Shown here: positions 1,499 through 9,416 of the stretch, piece by piece | Layout of the letters: each line of letters starts with the position of its first letter | Numbering within the stretch: position 1 is the first letter of the stretch | DNA from: Silvanigrellaceae bacterium | GTDB taxonomy: Bacteria > Bdellovibrionota_B > Oligoflexia > Silvanigrellales > Silvanigrellaceae | Assembly: GCA_049423385.1 (NCBI GenBank) | Contig: JBMSQQ010000102.1 | Coordinates: 1 to 11,454, forward strand | Direction of reading: 5' to 3' | Length of the DNA: 11,454 bases | Program-made: the position numbers and the translations under genes | Notes under the pieces: generated by a model | Databases searched by the model: none | Seen by the model: only the letters and a program-made list of their open reading frames with translations | Told to the model about the DNA's origin: nothing

Positions 1499-2167
1499 TC
1501 AATCAATTGAATCATTCATTGCGCTGAAGCCTTCCAGCCAGGCCAAGACTGTGCGCAGTTCGGACTGGGAGATCAAGCCCATGCCCTTGGCAACTTCAAG
1601 AATCTGCACTGTTTCAAACAGAGCCACAAACGGCAGATTGATGCTCTCGAATTTCCGGTGCGACGACGGTATCGCATGTGTCGTGACCGTCGTCGACATC
1701 ACCATCCGGGTATCCAGCTGACGCAAGACTTCAACCGACTTGAGCACGCTCTGACCGGTTGTCATCATGTCATCGACGACCACATGCGGTTTGCGCGGAT
1801 TGAATTCCCCTTCAACCATCTGTTGCAAACCGTGACCTTTTGGCTTTTGGCGCACATAAATGAATTCGCAATCCCATTGATTGGCAAGAGCCATGGCGGG
1901 CGCAATACCGGCGGTTGCCGTTCCGGCAAAAACAACATCGCGCGGAAGGCAGCCCAGATTTTTCAGCTCTGACTCAATTTTTTGGGCCCAGATCGTCACC
2001 AGATTCTTGCGCAGCACTGGATTCGTGAATGCGCGACGATGATCGAGATATATGGGTGCCTTCGCTCCACTCGACAAAACGAAGGGGCTGGAAGCATCGA
2101 CCTTGATGACACCATGATTGAAAAAAAGATCCACGACTGTGGATTCAGGATTTTTGCTGTTGGTCAT
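1499..2167 (-). CDS. pyrE: Orotate phosphoribosyltransferase
   Basis: Motifs FVLSSGAKAPIYLDHR, ATAGIA, flexible loop YVRQKPKGHG and PRPP loop VVVDDMMTTGQS. Start placed at MTNSK (2167), overlapping the upstream gene by 23 nt. Confidence 0.9.
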   Translation of the reverse strand: MTNSKNPESTVVDLFFNHGVIKVDASSPFVLSSGAKAPIYLDHRRAFTNPVLRKNLVTIWAQKIESELKNLGCLPRDVVFAGTATAGIAPAMALANQWDCEFIYVRQKPKGHGLQQMVEGEFNPRKPHVVVDDMMTTGQSVLKSVEVLRQLDTRMVMSTTVTTHAIPSSHRKFESINLPFVALFETVQILEVAKGMGLISQSELRTVLAWLEGFSAMNDSID

Positions 2168-3371
2168 TCCTGTTTTCCCGTGAAGAAAATTTAATACCCA
2201 GGCGTTGAGCACATTCACTTGCGAACTGGAGATTCCACATTGCAGCTGTTGCAACATGCACAACGTCTGCTCCTGCCTTCAAAAACGCTTCAAAATCGTC
2301 AACCGTGGTGCAGCCACCAACACCCACAAGCGCAAAACTTCTACTGTCGAGTCCCAAACTCCTGCGGCACCGGCTCAACTTTCCGATCATCTGGATCGCC
2401 TCATCGCGGATAGCAGCGCCACAGACTCCGCCATGTGCGGATCCGGATCCAAGTGCACGTTCACCTGCGGGAGTTACGATATTCGCACTCACCGTATTGA
2501 TCGCACTGATTCCATGCGCATATTTTGCAATCACTTCGACGGTTGACAAAATATTTTTTTCCGGGACCACGCCCAACTTGATGACAAGTCTCATTTCAGG
2601 AAAATCGGTCAATGCTTCGGACGCTGCGCGCACAGTTTCGGTGAGTGCTTTCAGGTCGGTGAAAATCGGCGCACCCGCCTCGTTCGGACAACTCACGTTC
2701 ATTTCGAGGAGGGAACCACCTGCAGCGCGAACGCATTGAGCGGCAAGCCTGGCAGTGGTGGACGTGTCGAGCAAAAAATCACTCCAGGGTCGGTTTTCCA
2801 GGCGAGAGCCCTGAAAACTCAGGACAGTCATCTTCCCTTGCGAAAAAGCACCCGGCAACAACCGGGAGAAATCCTGGCCCCACTCTTTTGGAGACAAACT
2901 GGGAACGCCAAAAGCATTGGTGATGCTCAGCCGTGACCTGAGCTCACTGTCGAGAAGGTCCTCGGCTCGAAGCGGAACCACTTCAACGGTTGAACGAAAG
3001 TTTTCTCCAGGGTTTGCATTGCGCAGCTGAAAATCGCATCCAACCAGCCTTTCGGGGCAAGCGGCTGAATCCTCATTTGAAAGGAGATTTTGGATTCTCA
3101 GGACATTGGGCCATGGATGACTCTGCCATGAACAGCTGCGCACCGTTTTATAAACCGGCATGCAAAAGCCAGCCTCCAGAGCAACATCAACGTAGGCTGA
3201 AGACAACAACGGCCCTGCCGGCATACCCAACGGAAGATGCAGCGGCACATCGAAAACTCCGAACTGCGGTGCCTGTTCAAAACGCACCACTGGAAACAGC
3301 CCATCCCTGTTCCAAACAGACGACGGGCCATTGCGCAGGTTCTCTTCGTAACTGGCCAGAGGATTATACAT
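2145..3371 (-). CDS. pyrD: FMN-dependent dihydroorotate dehydrogenase-like protein (class 1-like, catalytic Cys)
   Basis: Motifs PAGP, YKT (FMN-binding Lys), ITNAFG, EMNVSCPN (catalytic Cys loop), IKL, AINT, GGVCG and VGVGG. Directly upstream of pyrE. The ATG overlaps the upstream stop (TGATG). Dihydropyrimidine dehydrogenase subunits share these motifs, so the substrate rests partly on context. Confidence 0.78.
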   Translation of the reverse strand: MYNPLASYEENLRNGPSSVWNRDGLFPVVRFEQAPQFGVFDVPLHLPLGMPAGPLLSSAYVDVALEAGFCMPVYKTVRSCSWQSHPWPNVLRIQNLLSNEDSAACPERLVGCDFQLRNANPGENFRSTVEVVPLRAEDLLDSELRSRLSITNAFGVPSLSPKEWGQDFSRLLPGAFSQGKMTVLSFQGSRLENRPWSDFLLDTSTTARLAAQCVRAAGGSLLEMNVSCPNEAGAPIFTDLKALTETVRAASEALTDFPEMRLVIKLGVVPEKNILSTVEVIAKYAHGISAINTVSANIVTPAGERALGSGSAHGGVCGAAIRDEAIQMIGKLSRCRRSLGLDSRSFALVGVGGCTTVDDFEAFLKAGADVVHVATAAMWNLQFASECAQRLGIKFSSRENRNDQQQKS

Positions 3372-4387
3372 CAGGCGAGCCCCAACACCCGCCGACCGTT
3401 TTCGGTTGCAATTCGAATCAATTCCGCCGAGTCGTAAAAATGGGTGGCCTCGAGAAGCATCCTGAGTTCCACCATCGGGTCGCCATCAGCAAATGGTTTG
3501 TAGATGTCCGAGATATTGTCGGACCCGATGGCCACACACAATCCCGCAGGAATCATCTCGTCGATCGGTGTGATTGCATTGTGGGTCGGAGTCAGAACTT
3601 CGTTGCGCCGTGCATCCAGCCAGGCTCCAGGACATGCAACGAAACTCAATCCGGCATCATTGCAAAGTTTGTAGAGCTCTTGTCGATATGACTTTGGTTG
3701 GCAACCAATGCTGATGCCATGAACTGCGGTCACCTTGCCTTCCAGACCATGACGAATCACGGTTCGGGCAAGCTGTTCGGTTTCACGTTCATTTGGATCG
3801 TTGTTTTGATCGACGTGCACATGCACGCGCTTGCCCGTCGCCTTCGCAGCTGACAGAAGCACATCAAGATGTTCCTGCTCTCGTCCTCGATCTGCACCGG
3901 GCAGACCACCAATCACGTCGACGCTTTCCAGCGACTTCTCGAAGAATTGCCGCGCTTCCTCGTTCAAAACACCCTTGAGCGTTTGGCACGCAAGCACAAG
4001 TTTCATTTGCAATTGTTGGGACGCGTATTCTTTTGCACGCAAGGCTGCGTCGAGTGCACGGGTGCCAGCAACCGGGTCGCAGTCAATGAAAGTGAGTGCC
4101 AGACGCACACCGAATTCATGTTGCGCCCGCAGTGCGGATGTGATGTGTGCAAAATAGTCGTCTTCGCTGGCCGACTTCTTCCACGCATCAACCAACTGCC
4201 ACTTTTCCTGCAGCGGGCGTTCCACAACCGCGTCCAACGCGATTGATGATTGCCCCAAAACTGGCTGACCCATGGGCAGATCGGCCGGAGTCACCGAATA
4301 GGCCCTGTCGAAATGCGCATGCGCATTCACGAAACCGCCGGCGGAAATGATCTTTTGCCGCAACTGGGCCAATGGCATCCAGAACAT
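3371..4387 (-). CDS. Metal-dependent amidohydrolase, cytosine deaminase (CodA)-like barrel, substrate unknown
   Basis: Motifs FVNAHAHFD (HxH), HVHVDQ, VTAVHG and IGSDNISDIYKPF align with CodA HIHLD, DVHCDE, VTASH and FGHDDVFDPWYPL. Start is ATG 4387 (7 nt after GGAG) or ATG 4390 (overlapping the argG stop). Confidence 0.85.
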   Translation of the reverse strand: MFWMPLAQLRQKIISAGGFVNAHAHFDRAYSVTPADLPMGQPVLGQSSIALDAVVERPLQEKWQLVDAWKKSASEDDYFAHITSALRAQHEFGVRLALTFIDCDPVAGTRALDAALRAKEYASQQLQMKLVLACQTLKGVLNEEARQFFEKSLESVDVIGGLPGADRGREQEHLDVLLSAAKATGKRVHVHVDQNNDPNERETEQLARTVIRHGLEGKVTAVHGISIGCQPKSYRQELYKLCNDAGLSFVACPGAWLDARRNEVLTPTHNAITPIDEMIPAGLCVAIGSDNISDIYKPFADGDPMVELRMLLEATHFYDSAELIRIATENGRRVLGLA

Positions 4388-4389
4388 CA

Positions 4390-6051
4390 TCAAACTCCAT
4401 TCATCAGGGCTGGCTTTTGTTGCTCGCCACGCGCAGCAATGGGCTTGCGGGCCTGTGTTTTGAGCCGCTCGCAGATGTTCATCAAGACATCATATTCACT
4501 GACCAGCTGAACACCGTTGATGACGCTCCATTTGCGAATTTCCGTCCCATCTCGCACTTCAACGTTGTTGTTTTCAGGGCTCATCACATTGACGATGAGG
4601 TCAAAGCGGTTCTGCTTCAGCAGGTCGAGCAGGTTTGGCTTCTTGTTTGAATCCGAAACTTTGTAGACGCAAACGGCAGGCACGCCAGCCTTTTGCAGGA
4701 CCGCATGTGTGCCCTCGGTTGCAAAAAGAACAAATCCACTGTCGGCAAGCTTGGAAACCAATGGCAAAAACCGCTGCTTCTGCTCTGTGCTGCCAATCGA
4801 AATAAGTGCATAACGCTCTGTTTCACGGGCCATGCGCATCTGCATCGTGTAAATCTCGGTGAATGCAGCAGACGCATTCTGGTTGAACGCATTGCTCTTC
4901 ATGAACGTTGCCAGTTTTTCATCAAACAAACTGTTTGGAGTCTCAACAGCAACAGTTTCTGCACGCCCCTTGAACAGGCGCAACGTCACTGTTCCAGTCA
5001 CTTTTTCGTTCACGGCATCAACGTACATATTGAGGTTGTGCATCAGTGGTTCATACCATTGCGCACCATAGCAGAGGTAACCCCATTTCTGGTCAACAAG
5101 AGTCTTGAATTCGTTTTCCTGGCGGGTGCAGACGTATTTTTCGAGAGTCTCGTGCGCACGGACAATGATGGTTGCAGCCGGCGCTTCATAGATACCGCGA
5201 ACCTTCAATCCAACAACCCGATCCTCAATGTGGTGGGTCACACCAACACCATGGTTTGCACCCATCTCGTTCAACTGCGCAATGAGTGGTACAAGTCCCA
5301 TGTCCTGACCGTTCAGCTGAACGGGAAGCCCCTTGAGGAAGCCAATCGTGATCGTCGTCGGTTCGTGAGGAGTTTCCTCGATGGGCTTGCAGATCTGAAG
5401 AATATTCTTGAGAGGTGGAACGAGCGCGGGGTTTTCGATTTCGCCACCCTCTGCAGAGATTCCCCACATGTTGTCGTCGTAGCTGTAGGGTGAATCTGCA
5501 GTTTGTTTGACCGGTATGTTGTGCTGACGCGCGTATTCCAATTCTTCGTCGCGGCCCATTCCCCACTCGCGCACGGGTGCGATGATCTTCATTTCTGGAG
5601 CCAGCGTCAGGATGCTCCCTTCAAGCCGAACCTGATCGTTTCCTTTGCCTGTGCAGCCATGTGCAATGCAGTCGCAGCCTTCCGCGCGCGCAACATCGAC
5701 GGCAAGCTTCGCCAACAAGGGGCGACCCAGCGGTGTCGCAAGGTGATAGTCACCTTGATAACGCGCGTTTGCCTTGATTCCTTTGGCCAGGTACTCGTAG
5801 GCAAATTCGTTTTTCGCATCCACAACCACAGCCTTGATGGCTCCAAGGCGAAGCGCCTTTTGACGAATTTCCTCGAGGTTGTCTGCCTGCTGACCAATAT
5901 CGATGGTCAGGGCGATGACTTCTGCCTGGTATTCATCCTGAATCCATTTGAGCATCACGCTGGTGTCGAGTCCGCCCGAGTAAAGGAGAACCACTTTGCG
6001 GATTTCACCCTTGCGACCTTCATATGAGGAAACCTTCATGTAATTGTTCAT
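4390..6051 (-). CDS. argG: Argininosuccinate synthase with a C-terminal MGS-like (CarB allosteric-type) domain
   Basis: Motifs LLYSGGLDTS (PP-loop), TPLGRP, HGCTGKGNDQVR, APVREW, YSYDDNMWGISAEGG and EDRVVGLKVRGIYEAP. About 140 extra C-terminal residues include ATEGTHAVL, YKVS, PNLLDLLK, DLIVN and DGTEIR. Start at ATG 6051, with GGGAGGT 9 nt upstream. Confidence 0.92.
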   Translation of the reverse strand: MNNYMKVSSYEGRKGEIRKVVLLYSGGLDTSVMLKWIQDEYQAEVIALTIDIGQQADNLEEIRQKALRLGAIKAVVVDAKNEFAYEYLAKGIKANARYQGDYHLATPLGRPLLAKLAVDVARAEGCDCIAHGCTGKGNDQVRLEGSILTLAPEMKIIAPVREWGMGRDEELEYARQHNIPVKQTADSPYSYDDNMWGISAEGGEIENPALVPPLKNILQICKPIEETPHEPTTITIGFLKGLPVQLNGQDMGLVPLIAQLNEMGANHGVGVTHHIEDRVVGLKVRGIYEAPAATIIVRAHETLEKYVCTRQENEFKTLVDQKWGYLCYGAQWYEPLMHNLNMYVDAVNEKVTGTVTLRLFKGRAETVAVETPNSLFDEKLATFMKSNAFNQNASAAFTEIYTMQMRMARETERYALISIGSTEQKQRFLPLVSKLADSGFVLFATEGTHAVLQKAGVPAVCVYKVSDSNKKPNLLDLLKQNRFDLIVNVMSPENNNVEVRDGTEIRKWSVINGVQLVSEYDVLMNICERLKTQARKPIAARGEQQKPALMNGV

Positions 6052-6085
6052 CAGCGCTGGACCTCCCGCAAACAGAATTTCAGGC

Positions 6086-6111
6086 AAAAAAAAACCCGCT
6101 CAACGCGGGTT
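6086..6111 (-). terminator. Intrinsic terminator, possibly an attenuator, just upstream of argG
   Basis: The minus strand reads AACCCGC-GTTGA-GCGGGTT-TTTTTTT: a 7-bp stem, a 5-nt loop and 9 consecutive U after GCGGG. It ends 34 nt before the argG ATG. Confidence 0.85.
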
Positions 6112-6239: not shown

Positions 6240-7541
6240 TCAAGACGCCTTCTTGATGGACGCATCGTCTTTGGCTGCTTCCGTTGAGTTCTTTTGGTCA
6301 ACAGAAGGCACCGGAAGTGGGATCGATGACATGGGCGCAGGCTCAACCGCTGGGAACTGTGCCTTGATCTCGAGAATTTCGTCGAGGTTGTCGAAAAAGA
6401 TGTCGACAATTTCTGGATCAAAGTGGCTACCGCTGCAGTTGCGAAGCTCATCGAACACCTTGTCGATTGGCCATGATTCCTTGTAGACGCGCCGTGAACA
6501 GAGCGCATCGAAAACATCGGCAAGAGCAACAACCCGACCCTCTGCCGGGATGTCTTTGCCCTTCAGGCCACGTGGATATCCGGTTCCATCCCAACGTTCG
6601 TGATGAGTGTAAGCAATCACCGCACCCATCTGAAGGAATGGTGAATCGGCGCCACGCAAAACTTCATAGCCTTTCACCGTATGCAGTTTCATGATTTCAA
6701 ATTCTTCAGGAGTCAGCCGTCCTGGCTTCTTGAGAACGGCGTCTGGAGTCGAAATCTTTCCAACGTCATGCAACATGGCCGCCAGCCTCATGACTTCGCA
6801 GGCAGCATCATCGAAGCCCAATTGTCGATACAACAACACGCTGTAACGACTCATTCGTTCGATGTGTCCACCCGTGTCTGTGTCATGGTATTCCGACGCC
6901 TTCACGAATTTCTTCACTGTCTCAATGCGGGACTGGCGCAAATCCTGGGCCATGCGCAGATTTCTGAGCACCACGCCGCACTGGCTTGAAAGAGCGCGCA
7001 GATAGGATTCAACCTTGGCCGGAAACGGAGACACTTCACCGCTGAAGTTCTCACCCATCAGGTGGTTGATAAGCTGCAGGACCCCCAGAACGTTTCCGCG
7101 CGAGTCGCACATCGGGATCACCAGCATGGATCTGCTGCGATAATTGGTCATGATGTCGAATGACGGATTGAACGAAAAAGGAGACTCCGATGGCAGATTA
7201 TAAACATCCTGAATATTCAGGGTTTTTCTGGACGAAGCGGCAAATCCGGCAGCAGTCTTGAGGTCGATCGGCAGCGTGTAATTTTTCAGCGCTGCCTTGA
7301 CTCCGCGGGCCTCGAGCACCCGGTTTCGGGTCAGCACAAACCGAAGTTGGTTTCCATCCGCCTCGTAAACTGTGCACCCTTCGCAATTACCCATAATCAA
7401 AGCAGTATCTGCCATAAGGCTCAGCAGCTCACTGGCATCGTCCATCTCGCTGAGAGCCAAACCGCTTTTTACAAGCAGGTTGAGATAGTCGATTGAATCT
7501 TCAGCATCCTGGACGCCAGGATTTTGTTTGTTCTCGGCCAT
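6240..7541 (-). CDS. GAF + HD-GYP domain protein, probable cyclic dinucleotide (c-di-GMP) phosphodiesterase
   Basis: N-terminal GAF (AGFAASSRKTLNIQDVY...FNPSFD...YRSRSMLVIPM...VLGVLQLIN). HD-GYP motifs DTDTGGHIERM, LHDVGK, KPGRLTPEEF, HHERWDGTGYP, ADVFDAL and RVYK. GAGG RBS upstream. Confidence 0.93.
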   Translation of the reverse strand: MAENKQNPGVQDAEDSIDYLNLLVKSGLALSEMDDASELLSLMADTALIMGNCEGCTVYEADGNQLRFVLTRNRVLEARGVKAALKNYTLPIDLKTAAGFAASSRKTLNIQDVYNLPSESPFSFNPSFDIMTNYRSRSMLVIPMCDSRGNVLGVLQLINHLMGENFSGEVSPFPAKVESYLRALSSQCGVVLRNLRMAQDLRQSRIETVKKFVKASEYHDTDTGGHIERMSRYSVLLYRQLGFDDAACEVMRLAAMLHDVGKISTPDAVLKKPGRLTPEEFEIMKLHTVKGYEVLRGADSPFLQMGAVIAYTHHERWDGTGYPRGLKGKDIPAEGRVVALADVFDALCSRRVYKESWPIDKVFDELRNCSGSHFDPEIVDIFFDNLDEILEIKAQFPAVEPAPMSSIPLPVPSVDQKNSTEAAKDDASIKKAS

Positions 7542-7805: not shown

Positions 7806-9416
7806 ATGATTGCGAGATACAGCCGCCCGGAAATGTCCAAGCTTTGGTCCGAAGATTCAAAATACATCTCATGGTCTCGGGTTGAACGCGCACATTTGGA
7901 GGCCCTTGTGGAACGCCGGGGAGTTCCCGCGGCAGTTCTTGCAGCATTCGACAGCGCCATCAAAAAAACCAACGCGGGCGACTATCTCAAACGCGAAGAG
8001 GAAACCGGACACGACGTGATTGCCTACGTTGCGGAGGTGGGCGAAGCCATGGGCGACGCCGGACGCTGGCTGCATCAAGGCCTCACAAGTTCGGACGTGC
8101 TCGACACTGCCTTGAGTTTGCGCCTTGGTGAAAGCCTTGAACTGCTGCGCAAACCTCTGTTTGCCTTGCGGAAGGCTCTTGCCAAGCAAGCCTTCAATCA
8201 CGTCAACACGCCCATCATGGGTCGCACCCACGGCATACATGCCGAACCTTTGTCGTTTGGCCAGGTCCTTGCGGGACATTTTGAAGATTTTCAGCGCGCA
8301 CATGTTGAACTTGTTGAAACACAAAAGCTCTGTTCAACCGGAAAAATGTCGGGTGCCGTTGGCCAATATTCACAGTTGACTCCGGAACACGAAGCACACG
8401 TTCTGAACAAGCTGGGTCTCACGCCCGAGCCGATTGCGACGCAGGTCATCCCGCGCGATCGCATCCTGCGCGTTGGTCATGCCTGTGAAAGTCTCGCCAA
8501 CGCCATCGAACGATTTGCGGTCAACATGCGTCATTGGGCCCGCACGGAATTACAGGAAGTCATCGAACCCTTTGGCAGCAAGCAAAAAGGCAGTTCCGCG
8601 ATGCCGCACAAAAAGAATCCGGTGCTCGCGGAAAATTTGTCAGGACTCGCACGCTCCATCCGTGGGTATGTGCAGATGCTCGGACAAAACACCGCGCTCT
8701 GGCATGAGCGGGACATCTCCCACAGCAGCGTCGAACGACTGGCTTTGCCCGACATGTTCGTCACCCTGGACTTCATGACTGCGCGCTGCGCAGACCTCAT
8801 CGAAAAAATGGTTGTTCAACCCGATGTGATGAGACGCAATCTTGAGCGCCTGGGTGGACTTTGGGCCAGTCAATCGGTCCTCACCCAACTCACAAATTCA
8901 GGAATGAACCGCACGGCTGCATACGAACTTGTGCAAAAAATCGCGCTGCCGCTCAACATGCAATCTGCGCGGGAAACCCTTCCCCCCGATGCGTTTCTCA
9001 AGGCACTGGAAGCGCAGGCTTCGGTTGTCGACCTCGTTGGCAAGGACAACCTGCGCGGATTGTTCAATCTTGAGCGTTTTCTGGCCCAGACACCGACCCG
9101 GTTCCTCACAGTCTTTGGAGTGACGCCGGACGAGATCGCACGGGTTCATGGCGGACGGGTGGATGCCAGCACGGTCCCCGCGCTTCAAAAAATCCTGAGA
9201 GTCACAGTTGCCTTGCACGCAGACGTGCTCGACACCGAGGCCAAAACAATTGAAGAGCATATGCATTCGCAAGGTCTCAGTGCCCGCCTGAAACGATCGA
9301 AAGTTTTTACAATCAACGTACCAAATGAAGATGAAACAGCCTCGCTGTTGGGTTATGTCTCATCGGTCTTGCGCAATGAGGTCATGGAATCCATTCACAT
9401 GGAGGTCATTCAATGA
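7806..9416 (+). CDS. purB: Adenylosuccinate lyase fused to a C-terminal PurS-like domain
   Basis: Motifs MIARYSRPEM, HQGLTSSD, MGRTHGIHAEP, GKMSGAVG, GSSAMPHKKNP and WHERDISHSSVER. The last ~75 aa (RVTVALHADVLDTEAKTI...SKVFTI...VLRNEVMESIHMEV) match the PurS pattern. RBS GAGGTG. Confidence 0.93.
   Translation: MIARYSRPEMSKLWSEDSKYISWSRVERAHLEALVERRGVPAAVLAAFDSAIKKTNAGDYLKREEETGHDVIAYVAEVGEAMGDAGRWLHQGLTSSDVLDTALSLRLGESLELLRKPLFALRKALAKQAFNHVNTPIMGRTHGIHAEPLSFGQVLAGHFEDFQRAHVELVETQKLCSTGKMSGAVGQYSQLTPEHEAHVLNKLGLTPEPIATQVIPRDRILRVGHACESLANAIERFAVNMRHWARTELQEVIEPFGSKQKGSSAMPHKKNPVLAENLSGLARSIRGYVQMLGQNTALWHERDISHSSVERLALPDMFVTLDFMTARCADLIEKMVVQPDVMRRNLERLGGLWASQSVLTQLTNSGMNRTAAYELVQKIALPLNMQSARETLPPDAFLKALEAQASVVDLVGKDNLRGLFNLERFLAQTPTRFLTVFGVTPDEIARVHGGRVDASTVPALQKILRVTVALHADVLDTEAKTIEEHMHSQGLSARLKRSKVFTINVPNEDETASLLGYVSSVLRNEVMESIHMEVIQ

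Follow-up and report, generated by a model that had tools for sequence, protein, structure and literature searches.

The orotate pathway to pyrimidines is regarded as near-universal; the second and third of its six steps fall to aspartate carbamoyltransferase (ATCase, PyrB) and dihydroorotase (PyrC, EC 3.5.2.3). In canonical PyrC the zinc site is binuclear and includes a carboxylated lysine. Among amidohydrolases of the CodA/AtzC branch, Escherichia coli CodA uses Glu217 as its proton shuttle. AtzC removes an alkylamine by hydrolytic displacement at the amidine carbon of a ring, between lactam N-H groups; hydrolytic displacement of an amine at a ring carbon is common to AtzC and the isocytosine-type deaminases. 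Here we describe a compact relative of these enzymes, encoded in a Silvanigrellaceae genome (G000, 90.6% complete) on an 11,454-b contig that was analysed whole and is called the window. The protein, a single-barrel CodA/AtzC-like amidohydrolase labelled X, is read from window positions 3371-4387 on the minus strand, and its gene stands between those of an argininosuccinate synthase (ArgG) fusion and a dihydroorotate-dehydrogenase-like flavoprotein (PyrD'). Its family membership, fold, motif conservation, gene order and phyletic pattern are reported below.

Comparative genomics makes it fairly probable that X converts argininosuccinate, or its cyclic anhydride, to dihydroorotate and ornithine, which would amount to a pyrimidine route independent of PyrB and PyrC. 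Argininosuccinate is the candidate substrate because ArgG and ArgH, which recur beside X, share just that metabolite, and this constant partnership is consistent with the guanidinium or amidinium substrate proposed for X in an earlier note on this DNA. X is the candidate source of dihydroorotate because X-bearing genomes without PyrB or PyrC keep the late pathway, which in Bacteroidota and in the metagenome locus L085 continues with a canonical PyrD. The substrate, product and mechanism of X we infer from gene neighbourhood and gene absence. The earlier note had treated a guanidinium hydrolase and a non-canonical dihydroorotase as alternatives, a division that the genome evidence does not favour, since it suggests a single enzyme making dihydroorotate from an argininosuccinate-derived substrate.

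Fold, motifs and family of X

X is a member of the amidohydrolase superfamily by Pfam score, metal-ligand pattern and modelled barrel. It scores over the gathering cut-offs of PF07969 (54.1 vs 29.7) and PF01979 (37.0 vs 25), and it passes NCBIfam NF005365 (PRK06886, 'hypothetical protein') with 371.1 bits against a cut-off of 340 (E = 4.3e-111), the match spanning X residues 9-339 and model positions 11-324 of 327. Named homologues occur in Silvanigrella, Fluviispira, Pigmentibacter and Spirobacillus, and no paper mentioning PRK06886 was found in the full text of open-access PMC and bioRxiv. The CodA models were far under their cut-offs for X (NF005759, 91.3 vs 403 bits; NF005748, 85.5 vs 438; NF006685, 76.1 vs 483). 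No dihydroorotase model was among its 8 NCBIfam matches at E ≤ 0.01, and a TIGR00857 scan of G000 did not report the X locus.

The motifs of the translation are HAHFD (residues 23-27), HVHVDQ (189-194), H223 and GSDN (288-291), with 22 residues ahead of HxH and 48 beyond D290; read from the ATG at 4387, the protein ends at ATENGRRVLGLA. Four residues, H23, H25, H223 and D290, do not vary at all across 46 aligned sequences and H191 hardly varies, and the metal pattern in the alignments is of the mononuclear CodA/AtzC type. A HMMER alignment of X to a CodA-type deaminase of Klebsiella (4r7w) sets 'vhvhvdqnndp' on 'vdvhcdeiddp', with Gln194 of X on the catalytic Glu that in CodA comes three residues past the third metal His (H-x-x-E) and Q135 on the substrate-binding Gln of CodA. 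The core alignment to AtzC pairs X residues 16-337 with residues 53-353 of a 403-residue chain, AtzC having 52 extra residues before the core and ∼50 after it. An AlphaFold2 model of X built from the 46 sequences (predicted local distance difference test, pLDDT, 95.1; predicted TM-score, pTM, 0.93) is one (beta/alpha)8 barrel with no second domain. Its best PDB matches in Foldseek were cytosine and 5-methylcytosine deaminases and AtzC, proteins of 400-423 residues, at E ∼1e-20 and query TM-scores (TMq) of 0.77-0.82. Adenosine deaminases, TrzN and imidazolonepropionase followed as the next class of fold at 1e-10, ten orders of magnitude behind, and there was no dihydroorotase among the listed matches.

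These results bear out what the earlier note had read from the letters of the DNA: HxH some 22 residues from the N-terminus and the early C-terminal end (both seen in the translation), the absence of both beta-sandwich segments (a single barrel in the model, with AtzC ∼50 residues longer at each end), the retained metal ligands, HAHFD and GSDN, and the Gln of HVHVDQ at the CodA Glu position. The view that X is not a standard cytosine deaminase stands on the CodA model scores (76-91 bits vs 403-483), the Gln for Glu and the missing beta-sandwich; that it is not a canonical PyrC agrees with the lack of any dihydroorotase among these same model and listed structure matches.

The earlier note had also allowed that close homologues might keep Glu, which would make the Gln a private or sequencing change. 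Q stands at the Glu column in 120 of 120 aligned proteins (X and homologues at ≥55% identity), and Gln194 is a family mark, neither a private change nor a sequencing error. Over a wider range, 106 aligned representatives of 50%-identity clusters have Q (58), E (41) or another residue (7) at this column. The Q-type proteins are compact (median 340 residues, with 27 before HxH and 52 past the metal Asp) and the E-type proteins long (median 410 residues, with 58 and 102, respectively), the exceptions being 4 compact E-type representatives and 14 Q-type ones with C-terminal tails of 64-85 residues. Separately, compact X-like clusters of ∼300-340 residues among the ESM Atlas matches have many members labelled Uroviricota or Nucleocytoviricota, and phage and giant-virus relatives of the X-type barrel may exist.

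Gene order and pathway gene content

The argG/X and X/pyrD' junctions in the window are both TGATG stop-start overlaps, and X is translationally coupled to pyrD', whose start overlaps the X stop codon. A second ATG for X, at 4390, overlaps the argG stop codon; the open frame around the gene is 3371..4393 (-). All of the Silvanigrellaceae loci examined (9 of 9), which come from several genera, keep the order ArgG(+MGS)-X-PyrD'-PyrE'; only in G093 is the MGS part missing, and ArgG is 76-96% identical across the nine. Within the family, X was found in G000 and in 25 of 26 further genomes; in the other families of the class, none of 77 genomes had it.

By model search, no aspartate carbamoyltransferase is present in 27 Silvanigrellaceae genomes: the best ATCase-model score was 149 bits, and the matches concerned are ornithine carbamoyltransferases (OTCases). 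The same model gave 180-298 bits in 60 of the 77 genomes of other families. For dihydroorotase, pyrC_multi had no match over cut-off in any of 16 panel genomes, 13 of them from the family, and 11 of these 13 had ≤28 bits or no match. PyrF is present in 27 of 27 family genomes, and PyrD' is the sole DHO_dh match in most of them. ArgH was found in 0 of 10 genomes of the window's genus and in 9 of the other 17 family genomes, while a full-length arginine-deiminase-like gene (212-260 bits) occurs in all 13 family genomes tested.

G000 itself has a single transcarbamylase, an ArgF that adjoins carB (TIGR00658, 388 bits vs 140 for the ATCase model). ArgH was not found in this genome (best 71.7 bits, cut-off 279.5). 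Its sole ArgG (a single Arginosuc_synth match) is the operon copy, its sole DHO_dh match over cut-off and its best PyrE match are likewise operon genes, and PyrF is present. A cyclic amidohydrolase of 486 residues on contig C78 (G000:C78:10640-12100, L129) was considered as a true PyrC of G000 and rejected, being found in only 2 of 13 family genomes and in a catabolic-looking cluster; it scored 214 bits with an allantoinase model and 177 bits with pyrC_multi, all under cut-offs. The neighbours of this gene encode a CoA-transferase, an aconitase/isopropylmalate-isomerase-like large subunit and a 3-hydroxy-3-methylglutaryl-CoA-lyase-like protein, and the cluster may be an uncharacterised catabolic pathway.

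In five family genomes (G092, G093, G101, G082 and G080; 93-98% complete) neither CarB nor a transcarbamylase was found, and two of these assemblies consist of 1 contig (G093) and 3 contigs (G092). X is present in all five, with the full operon in the three that were checked (G092, G093 and G101), from which ArgH is also absent. In these three, therefore, ArgG has no ArgH to feed and no known enzyme could make carbamoyl-aspartate, although PyrD', PyrE' and PyrF have all been retained.

The PyrD' loop NVSCPNEAG aligns to NVSSPNTAG of human dihydroorotate dehydrogenase (DHODH), so that the N-x-S-C-P-N substrate loop is kept, and the best PDB matches of its AlphaFold2 model (pLDDT 81.7) are DHODH and dihydropyrimidine dehydrogenase (DPD) over 367-397 columns. 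Given this loop and the DHODH/DPD-like modelled barrel, the PyrD' step is plausibly ordinary. PyrE' is under the equivalog cut-offs (NF001729, 102.1 vs 245; TIGR00336, 87.7 vs 106.8); no gene of G000 matches pyrE better, and it follows PyrD' in 9 of 9 loci. Its true start is probably near 2137, because homologues align only from residue 43.

The strongest NF005365 scores are in Bacteroidota (485-551 bits), where X was over cut-off in only 2 of 251 sampled genomes, a count that makes a phylum-wide anticorrelation test uninformative. G105 and G271, Bacteroidota genomes of 6.5 and 6.0 Mb, have argH (319 and 327 bits, over cut-off) directly upstream of X (485 and 499 bits). Their PyrD is of the canonical kind (259-273 bits), and searches for ArgG, CarB and transcarbamylases found none in either genome. 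The Bacteroidota X and ArgH proteins are without an MGS-like domain. In Blattabacteriaceae, X occurs in 11 of 11 genomes of 0.5-0.6 Mb (501-551 bits) and also in two of 1.3-1.5 Mb, and no ATCase was found in 41 sampled genomes (best 76.6 bits). Blattabacterium G104 has ArgG, CarAB, one acetylornithine-type transcarbamylase and a canonical PyrD, with no pyrC found. Early metabolic models of Blattabacterium needed dihydroorotate from the host (PMC3287516); a later model closed the gap by calling BLBBGE_317 EC 3.5.2.3 (PMC3819652), a gene that may be an X orthologue. In two Blattabacteriaceae genomes of 1.6-1.7 Mb, X is a decaying pseudogene with 19 and at least 6 stop codons (G362:C1:1137338-1138303 and G370:C1:1307335-1308302), in contrast to the 0.5-0.6 Mb genomes, all of which have it intact. 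The ArgG frame of G104 (L142:14619-16391) has 590 residues and matches ArgG only from residue 195, which could reflect an N-terminal extension or fused domain of ∼190 residues or an over-called start.

The MGS-like domain fused to ArgG is matched by carbamoyl-phosphate synthase (CPSase) large-subunit models at positions 914-1050 of 1058; this is the allosteric domain type of that subunit. In other lineages X itself carries an MGS-like domain as an N-terminal fusion, the domains being 33-42% identical. The MGS-X fusion was seen in 80 of 80 fetched metagenome loci (L049-L128), and at least 427 metagenome stretches encode it. The proteins have ∼480 residues (e.g. L085:7959-9413; NF005365 382 bits, over cut-off) and keep HxH...HVDQ...DN, and the commonest phylum in the MGS-X Atlas clusters is Pseudomonadota. 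The gene order in L085 and L087 is PyrR-[MGS-X]-CarA-CarB-PyrD(quinone type, 455 bits)-PyrF, with X filling the pyrB-pyrC slot. Elsewhere, neighbours of MGS-X include ArgF (L098), ArgF with acetylornithine carbamoyltransferase (L096) and an ArgH-like gene (L107). By analogy with CPSase, a regulatory role of the MGS-like domain appears more likely. An obligatory catalytic cyclase (cf. inosine monophosphate cyclohydrolase) was set aside, the domain being missing in the G093 operon and in Bacteroidota X/ArgH. Complex predictions of X with the MGS-like domain of ArgG, from two alignments and without controls, scored 0.00 and 0.00 and are no evidence either way.

The features of the window are collected in Table 1. 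Of the genes outside the argG operon, the adenylosuccinate lyase at 7806-9416 (+) matches TIGR00928 with 394 bits and carries a C-terminal PurS domain (PF02700) at residues 465-534; this purB-purS fusion is followed by purQ and purL, and the full 536-residue form is kept at 58-81% identity in four relatives (L135, L035, L038 and L041). The gene of a GAF + HD-GYP (HD_5) protein at 6240-7541 (-) separates the argG operon from the purB operon, which runs divergently; the protein keeps this position in four relatives at 58-91% identity and may be regulatory.

Table 1. Coordinates of genes, domains and key residues in the window
Feature	Position (nt)	Strand	Description
X	3371..4390	-	Compact CodA/AtzC-like amidohydrolase, 338 aa from ATG at 4387
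X H23, H25, D27, R28	4321-4304	-	
X Q135	3985-3983	-	
X H189, H191, D193, Q194	3823-3806	-	
X H223	3721-3719	-	
X D290, N291	3520-3515	-	
ArgG-MGS fusion, 565 aa	4390-6087	-	Directly upstream of X
ArgG (argininosuccinate synthase) part of fusion	4813..6087	-	NF001770 501.8 bits vs cut-off 334
MGS-like domain, C-terminal part of ArgG fusion	4393..4812	-	PF02142 56.4 bits
PyrD', dihydroorotate-dehydrogenase-like flavoprotein, 408 aa	2145..3371	-	PF01180 54.7 bits
PyrE', orotate-phosphoribosyltransferase-like	1499..2263	-	NF001729 102.1 bits, TIGR00336 87.7 bits
ROK kinase		-	
purB-purS fusion, purQ, purL		+	

A candidate route to dihydroorotate and competing explanations

In the proposed route the ArgG-MGS fusion, encoded just upstream of X, would make argininosuccinate from citrulline and aspartate, X would convert argininosuccinate to (S)-dihydroorotate with release of ornithine, and PyrD', PyrE' and PyrF would take dihydroorotate onward to uridine monophosphate (UMP). 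In G000, CarAB and ArgF would reload ornithine to citrulline, ornithine serving as a catalytic carbamoyl carrier (a cycle of CarAB, ArgF, ArgG, then X). Relatives without CarB or ArgF could possibly obtain citrulline from the arginine-deiminase-like enzyme, giving a version that starts from arginine and is free of carbamoyl phosphate (arginine deiminase, ArgG, then X), and in some Bacteroidota argininosuccinate could be made from arginine and fumarate by a reversed ArgH, which would make the route ATP-free (reversed ArgH, then X).

Argininosuccinate forms cyclic anhydrides, the six-membered one spontaneously. Closure of the guanidino NH2 onto the beta-carboxyl of the aspartate moiety would give this six-membered anhydride, either spontaneously or once bound by the enzyme in its active site. 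A hydroxide on the metal of X could then attack C2 and expel the delta-amine of ornithine, as AtzC expels isopropylamine. Gln194 would hydrogen-bond, and no protonation would be needed if ring N3 were already an N-H lactam or the substrate already protonated. In an alternative order, hydrolysis to carbamoyl-aspartate would come before ring closure in the same site. That Silvanigrellaceae, Blattabacterium, some other Bacteroidota and the MGS-X clade all make the pyrimidine ring without ATCase or dihydroorotase, using argininosuccinate as a masked carbamoyl-aspartate from which X releases ornithine, we put at a little better than an even chance. No description of the X family or of such a route was found in the open-access literature (PMC, bioRxiv). 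The enzyme itself is a variant within the known CodA/AtzC branch of amidohydrolases; the pathway, if confirmed, would be one for which we found no described precedent.

Several observations weigh against this proposal. We know of no precedent for one enzyme doing both ring closure and amine displacement. The combination of a missing PyrB and a present PyrD is not exclusive to X-bearing genomes, since three complete or near-complete genomes of another family of the class (G037-G039; 1-7 contigs, 2.2-3.1 Mb) have DHO_dh matches of 143-151 bits with no ATCase and no X, and G004 and G014 have DHO_dh matches of 197-231 bits with no ATCase match and no X. Within the family, G078 and G101 carry an extra DHO_dh gene (197 and 125 bits), and no arginine-deiminase-like gene reaches the 489-bit cut-off of its model. 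Many of the genomes are metagenome-assembled, with 85-94% completeness, and the genome profile searches start with a loose filter, yet controls were positive in 14 of 14 named genomes per family. Most MGS-X loci (loci only, as opposed to whole genomes) have unrelated neighbours: tblastn on the 80 loci gave CarB in 3, PyrF in 2 and an OTC-type gene in 2, and YkuD, YgfZ-like and Tag proteins were common neighbours in 12 loci scanned with Pfam. The L085 operon, moreover, is fitted equally well by a plain dihydroorotase with PyrB encoded elsewhere.

This last point belongs to a wider alternative, in which X would be a mononuclear dihydroorotase of CodA fold and non-canonical type, carrying N-carbamoyl-L-aspartate to dihydroorotate and back. 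The carbamoyl-aspartate would then come either from an unrecognised enzyme (a promiscuous transcarbamylase of the ornithine type or a separate hydrolase acting on argininosuccinate) or from uptake. The position of X in the L085 pyr operon is the usual one of pyrB-pyrC, a canonical dihydroorotase was not found in 16 of 16 panel genomes, and a chemistry of ring opening and closing, which would need only the metal-bound Asp, agrees with the loss of the CodA Glu. The assignment of EC 3.5.2.3 to a Blattabacterium gene in PMC3819652 would favour it too, if that gene were an X orthologue. We nevertheless consider this reading unlikely: seven X-bearing genomes (the five CarB-free family genomes together with G105 and G271) have neither transcarbamylase nor CarB, and so no known source of carbamoyl-aspartate. 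X is operon-linked to ArgG or ArgH and not to a transcarbamylase, no extra hydrolase is conserved (the minimal conserved set is ArgG or ArgH, with X and PyrD), and its matches include no dihydroorotase model or structure.

The divergence of PyrD' and PyrE' (55 and 88-102 bits, under equivalog cut-offs) could mean altered substrates, and the product of argG-X-pyrD'-pyrE' might then be a specialised pyrimidine nucleotide of the 2-amino or 2-(alkylamino) type in place of UMP, with X acting after the oxidation or the ornithine moiety retained. This seems quite improbable, as X stands beside a canonical PyrD (236-455 bits) in Bacteroidota and in the L085 operon, PyrD' retains its N-x-S-C-P-N loop, and the family genomes, which have no other UMP route, keep PyrF (27 of 27). 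A housekeeping or repair hydrolase of the arginine pathway, for example one that reopens argininosuccinate anhydrides, with an incidental pyrimidine link, would suit the adjacency of X to argG or argH in three lineages and the readiness of argininosuccinate to cyclise. It is very improbable given G105 and G271, where ArgH occurs without ArgG, ArgF or CarB and there is no arginine synthesis to protect, and given the window's genus, which has ArgG, with ArgH in none of 10 genomes; it also leaves unexplained how PyrD, PyrE and PyrF are fed without PyrB or PyrC, and why X is translationally coupled to pyrD'. Finally, X has the fold and metal ligands of the CodA/AtzC group, and homologues bear the automatic name 'cytosine/creatinine deaminase', as might be expected of a salvage deaminase for nucleobases or small amidines (cytosine, isocytosine, creatinine or a pterin). 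Such a role is very improbable for a protein whose close homologues replace the catalytic Glu with Gln in 120 of 120 cases, which falls far under the cut-off of every CodA model, whose gene context is biosynthetic and not that of salvage, and which is kept in endosymbiont genomes of 0.5-0.6 Mb.

If the conversion of argininosuccinate to dihydroorotate by X proves true, it would be a second way to dihydroorotate and would tie pyrimidine supply to arginine metabolism, not to carbamoyl-aspartate. It would account for the 'missing' pyrB/pyrC in genome-scale models, such as the dihydroorotate import of Blattabacterium, and would alter auxotrophy predictions for predatory and symbiotic bacteria. The PRK06886 family and the recurrent CPSase-type MGS domain would each gain a function, and a deaminase scaffold would have been retuned for a new reaction by exchanging Glu for Gln and losing its sandwich domain.

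Comparison with described enzymes

AtzC (N-isopropylammelide isopropylaminohydrolase; PDB 2qt3, 4cqb) is the best match of X by sequence among solved structures (E = 8e-23 over residues 16-337) and one of its top structural matches (TMq 0.77), with a common metal-site pattern of an HxHxD(K/R) start, H, H and D-N. By analogy, its displacement chemistry would be the very step proposed for X. The two differ in that AtzC has ∼400 residues with an N- and C-terminal beta-sandwich that X is without, identity is ∼25%, and H-I-H-D of AtzC stands where X has H-V-D-Q. The substrate of AtzC, furthermore, is a triazine xenobiotic, its pathway is catabolic, and AtzC has no link to argG, argH or pyr genes.

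CodA and 5-methylcytosine deaminase (PDB 1k6w, 4r7w) have the barrel and metal ligands in common with X (E ∼1e-20, TMq 0.79-0.82), and the substrate-binding Gln of CodA aligns with Q135. In X, however, the catalytic Glu has become Gln194, the beta-sandwich is absent and the context is biosynthetic. PyrC is of the same superfamily, and X appears at the same pathway step, the one that delivers dihydroorotate to PyrD. No specific similarity between PyrC and X was detected, the substrate proposed for X differs, and in place of the binuclear PyrC site X would have, judging from its alignments, the mononuclear CodA pattern. The nearest description of X itself is NF005365 (PRK06886), a model labelled 'hypothetical protein' whose 340-bit cut-off is passed by X, by the Bacteroidota members and by the MGS-X fusions alike.

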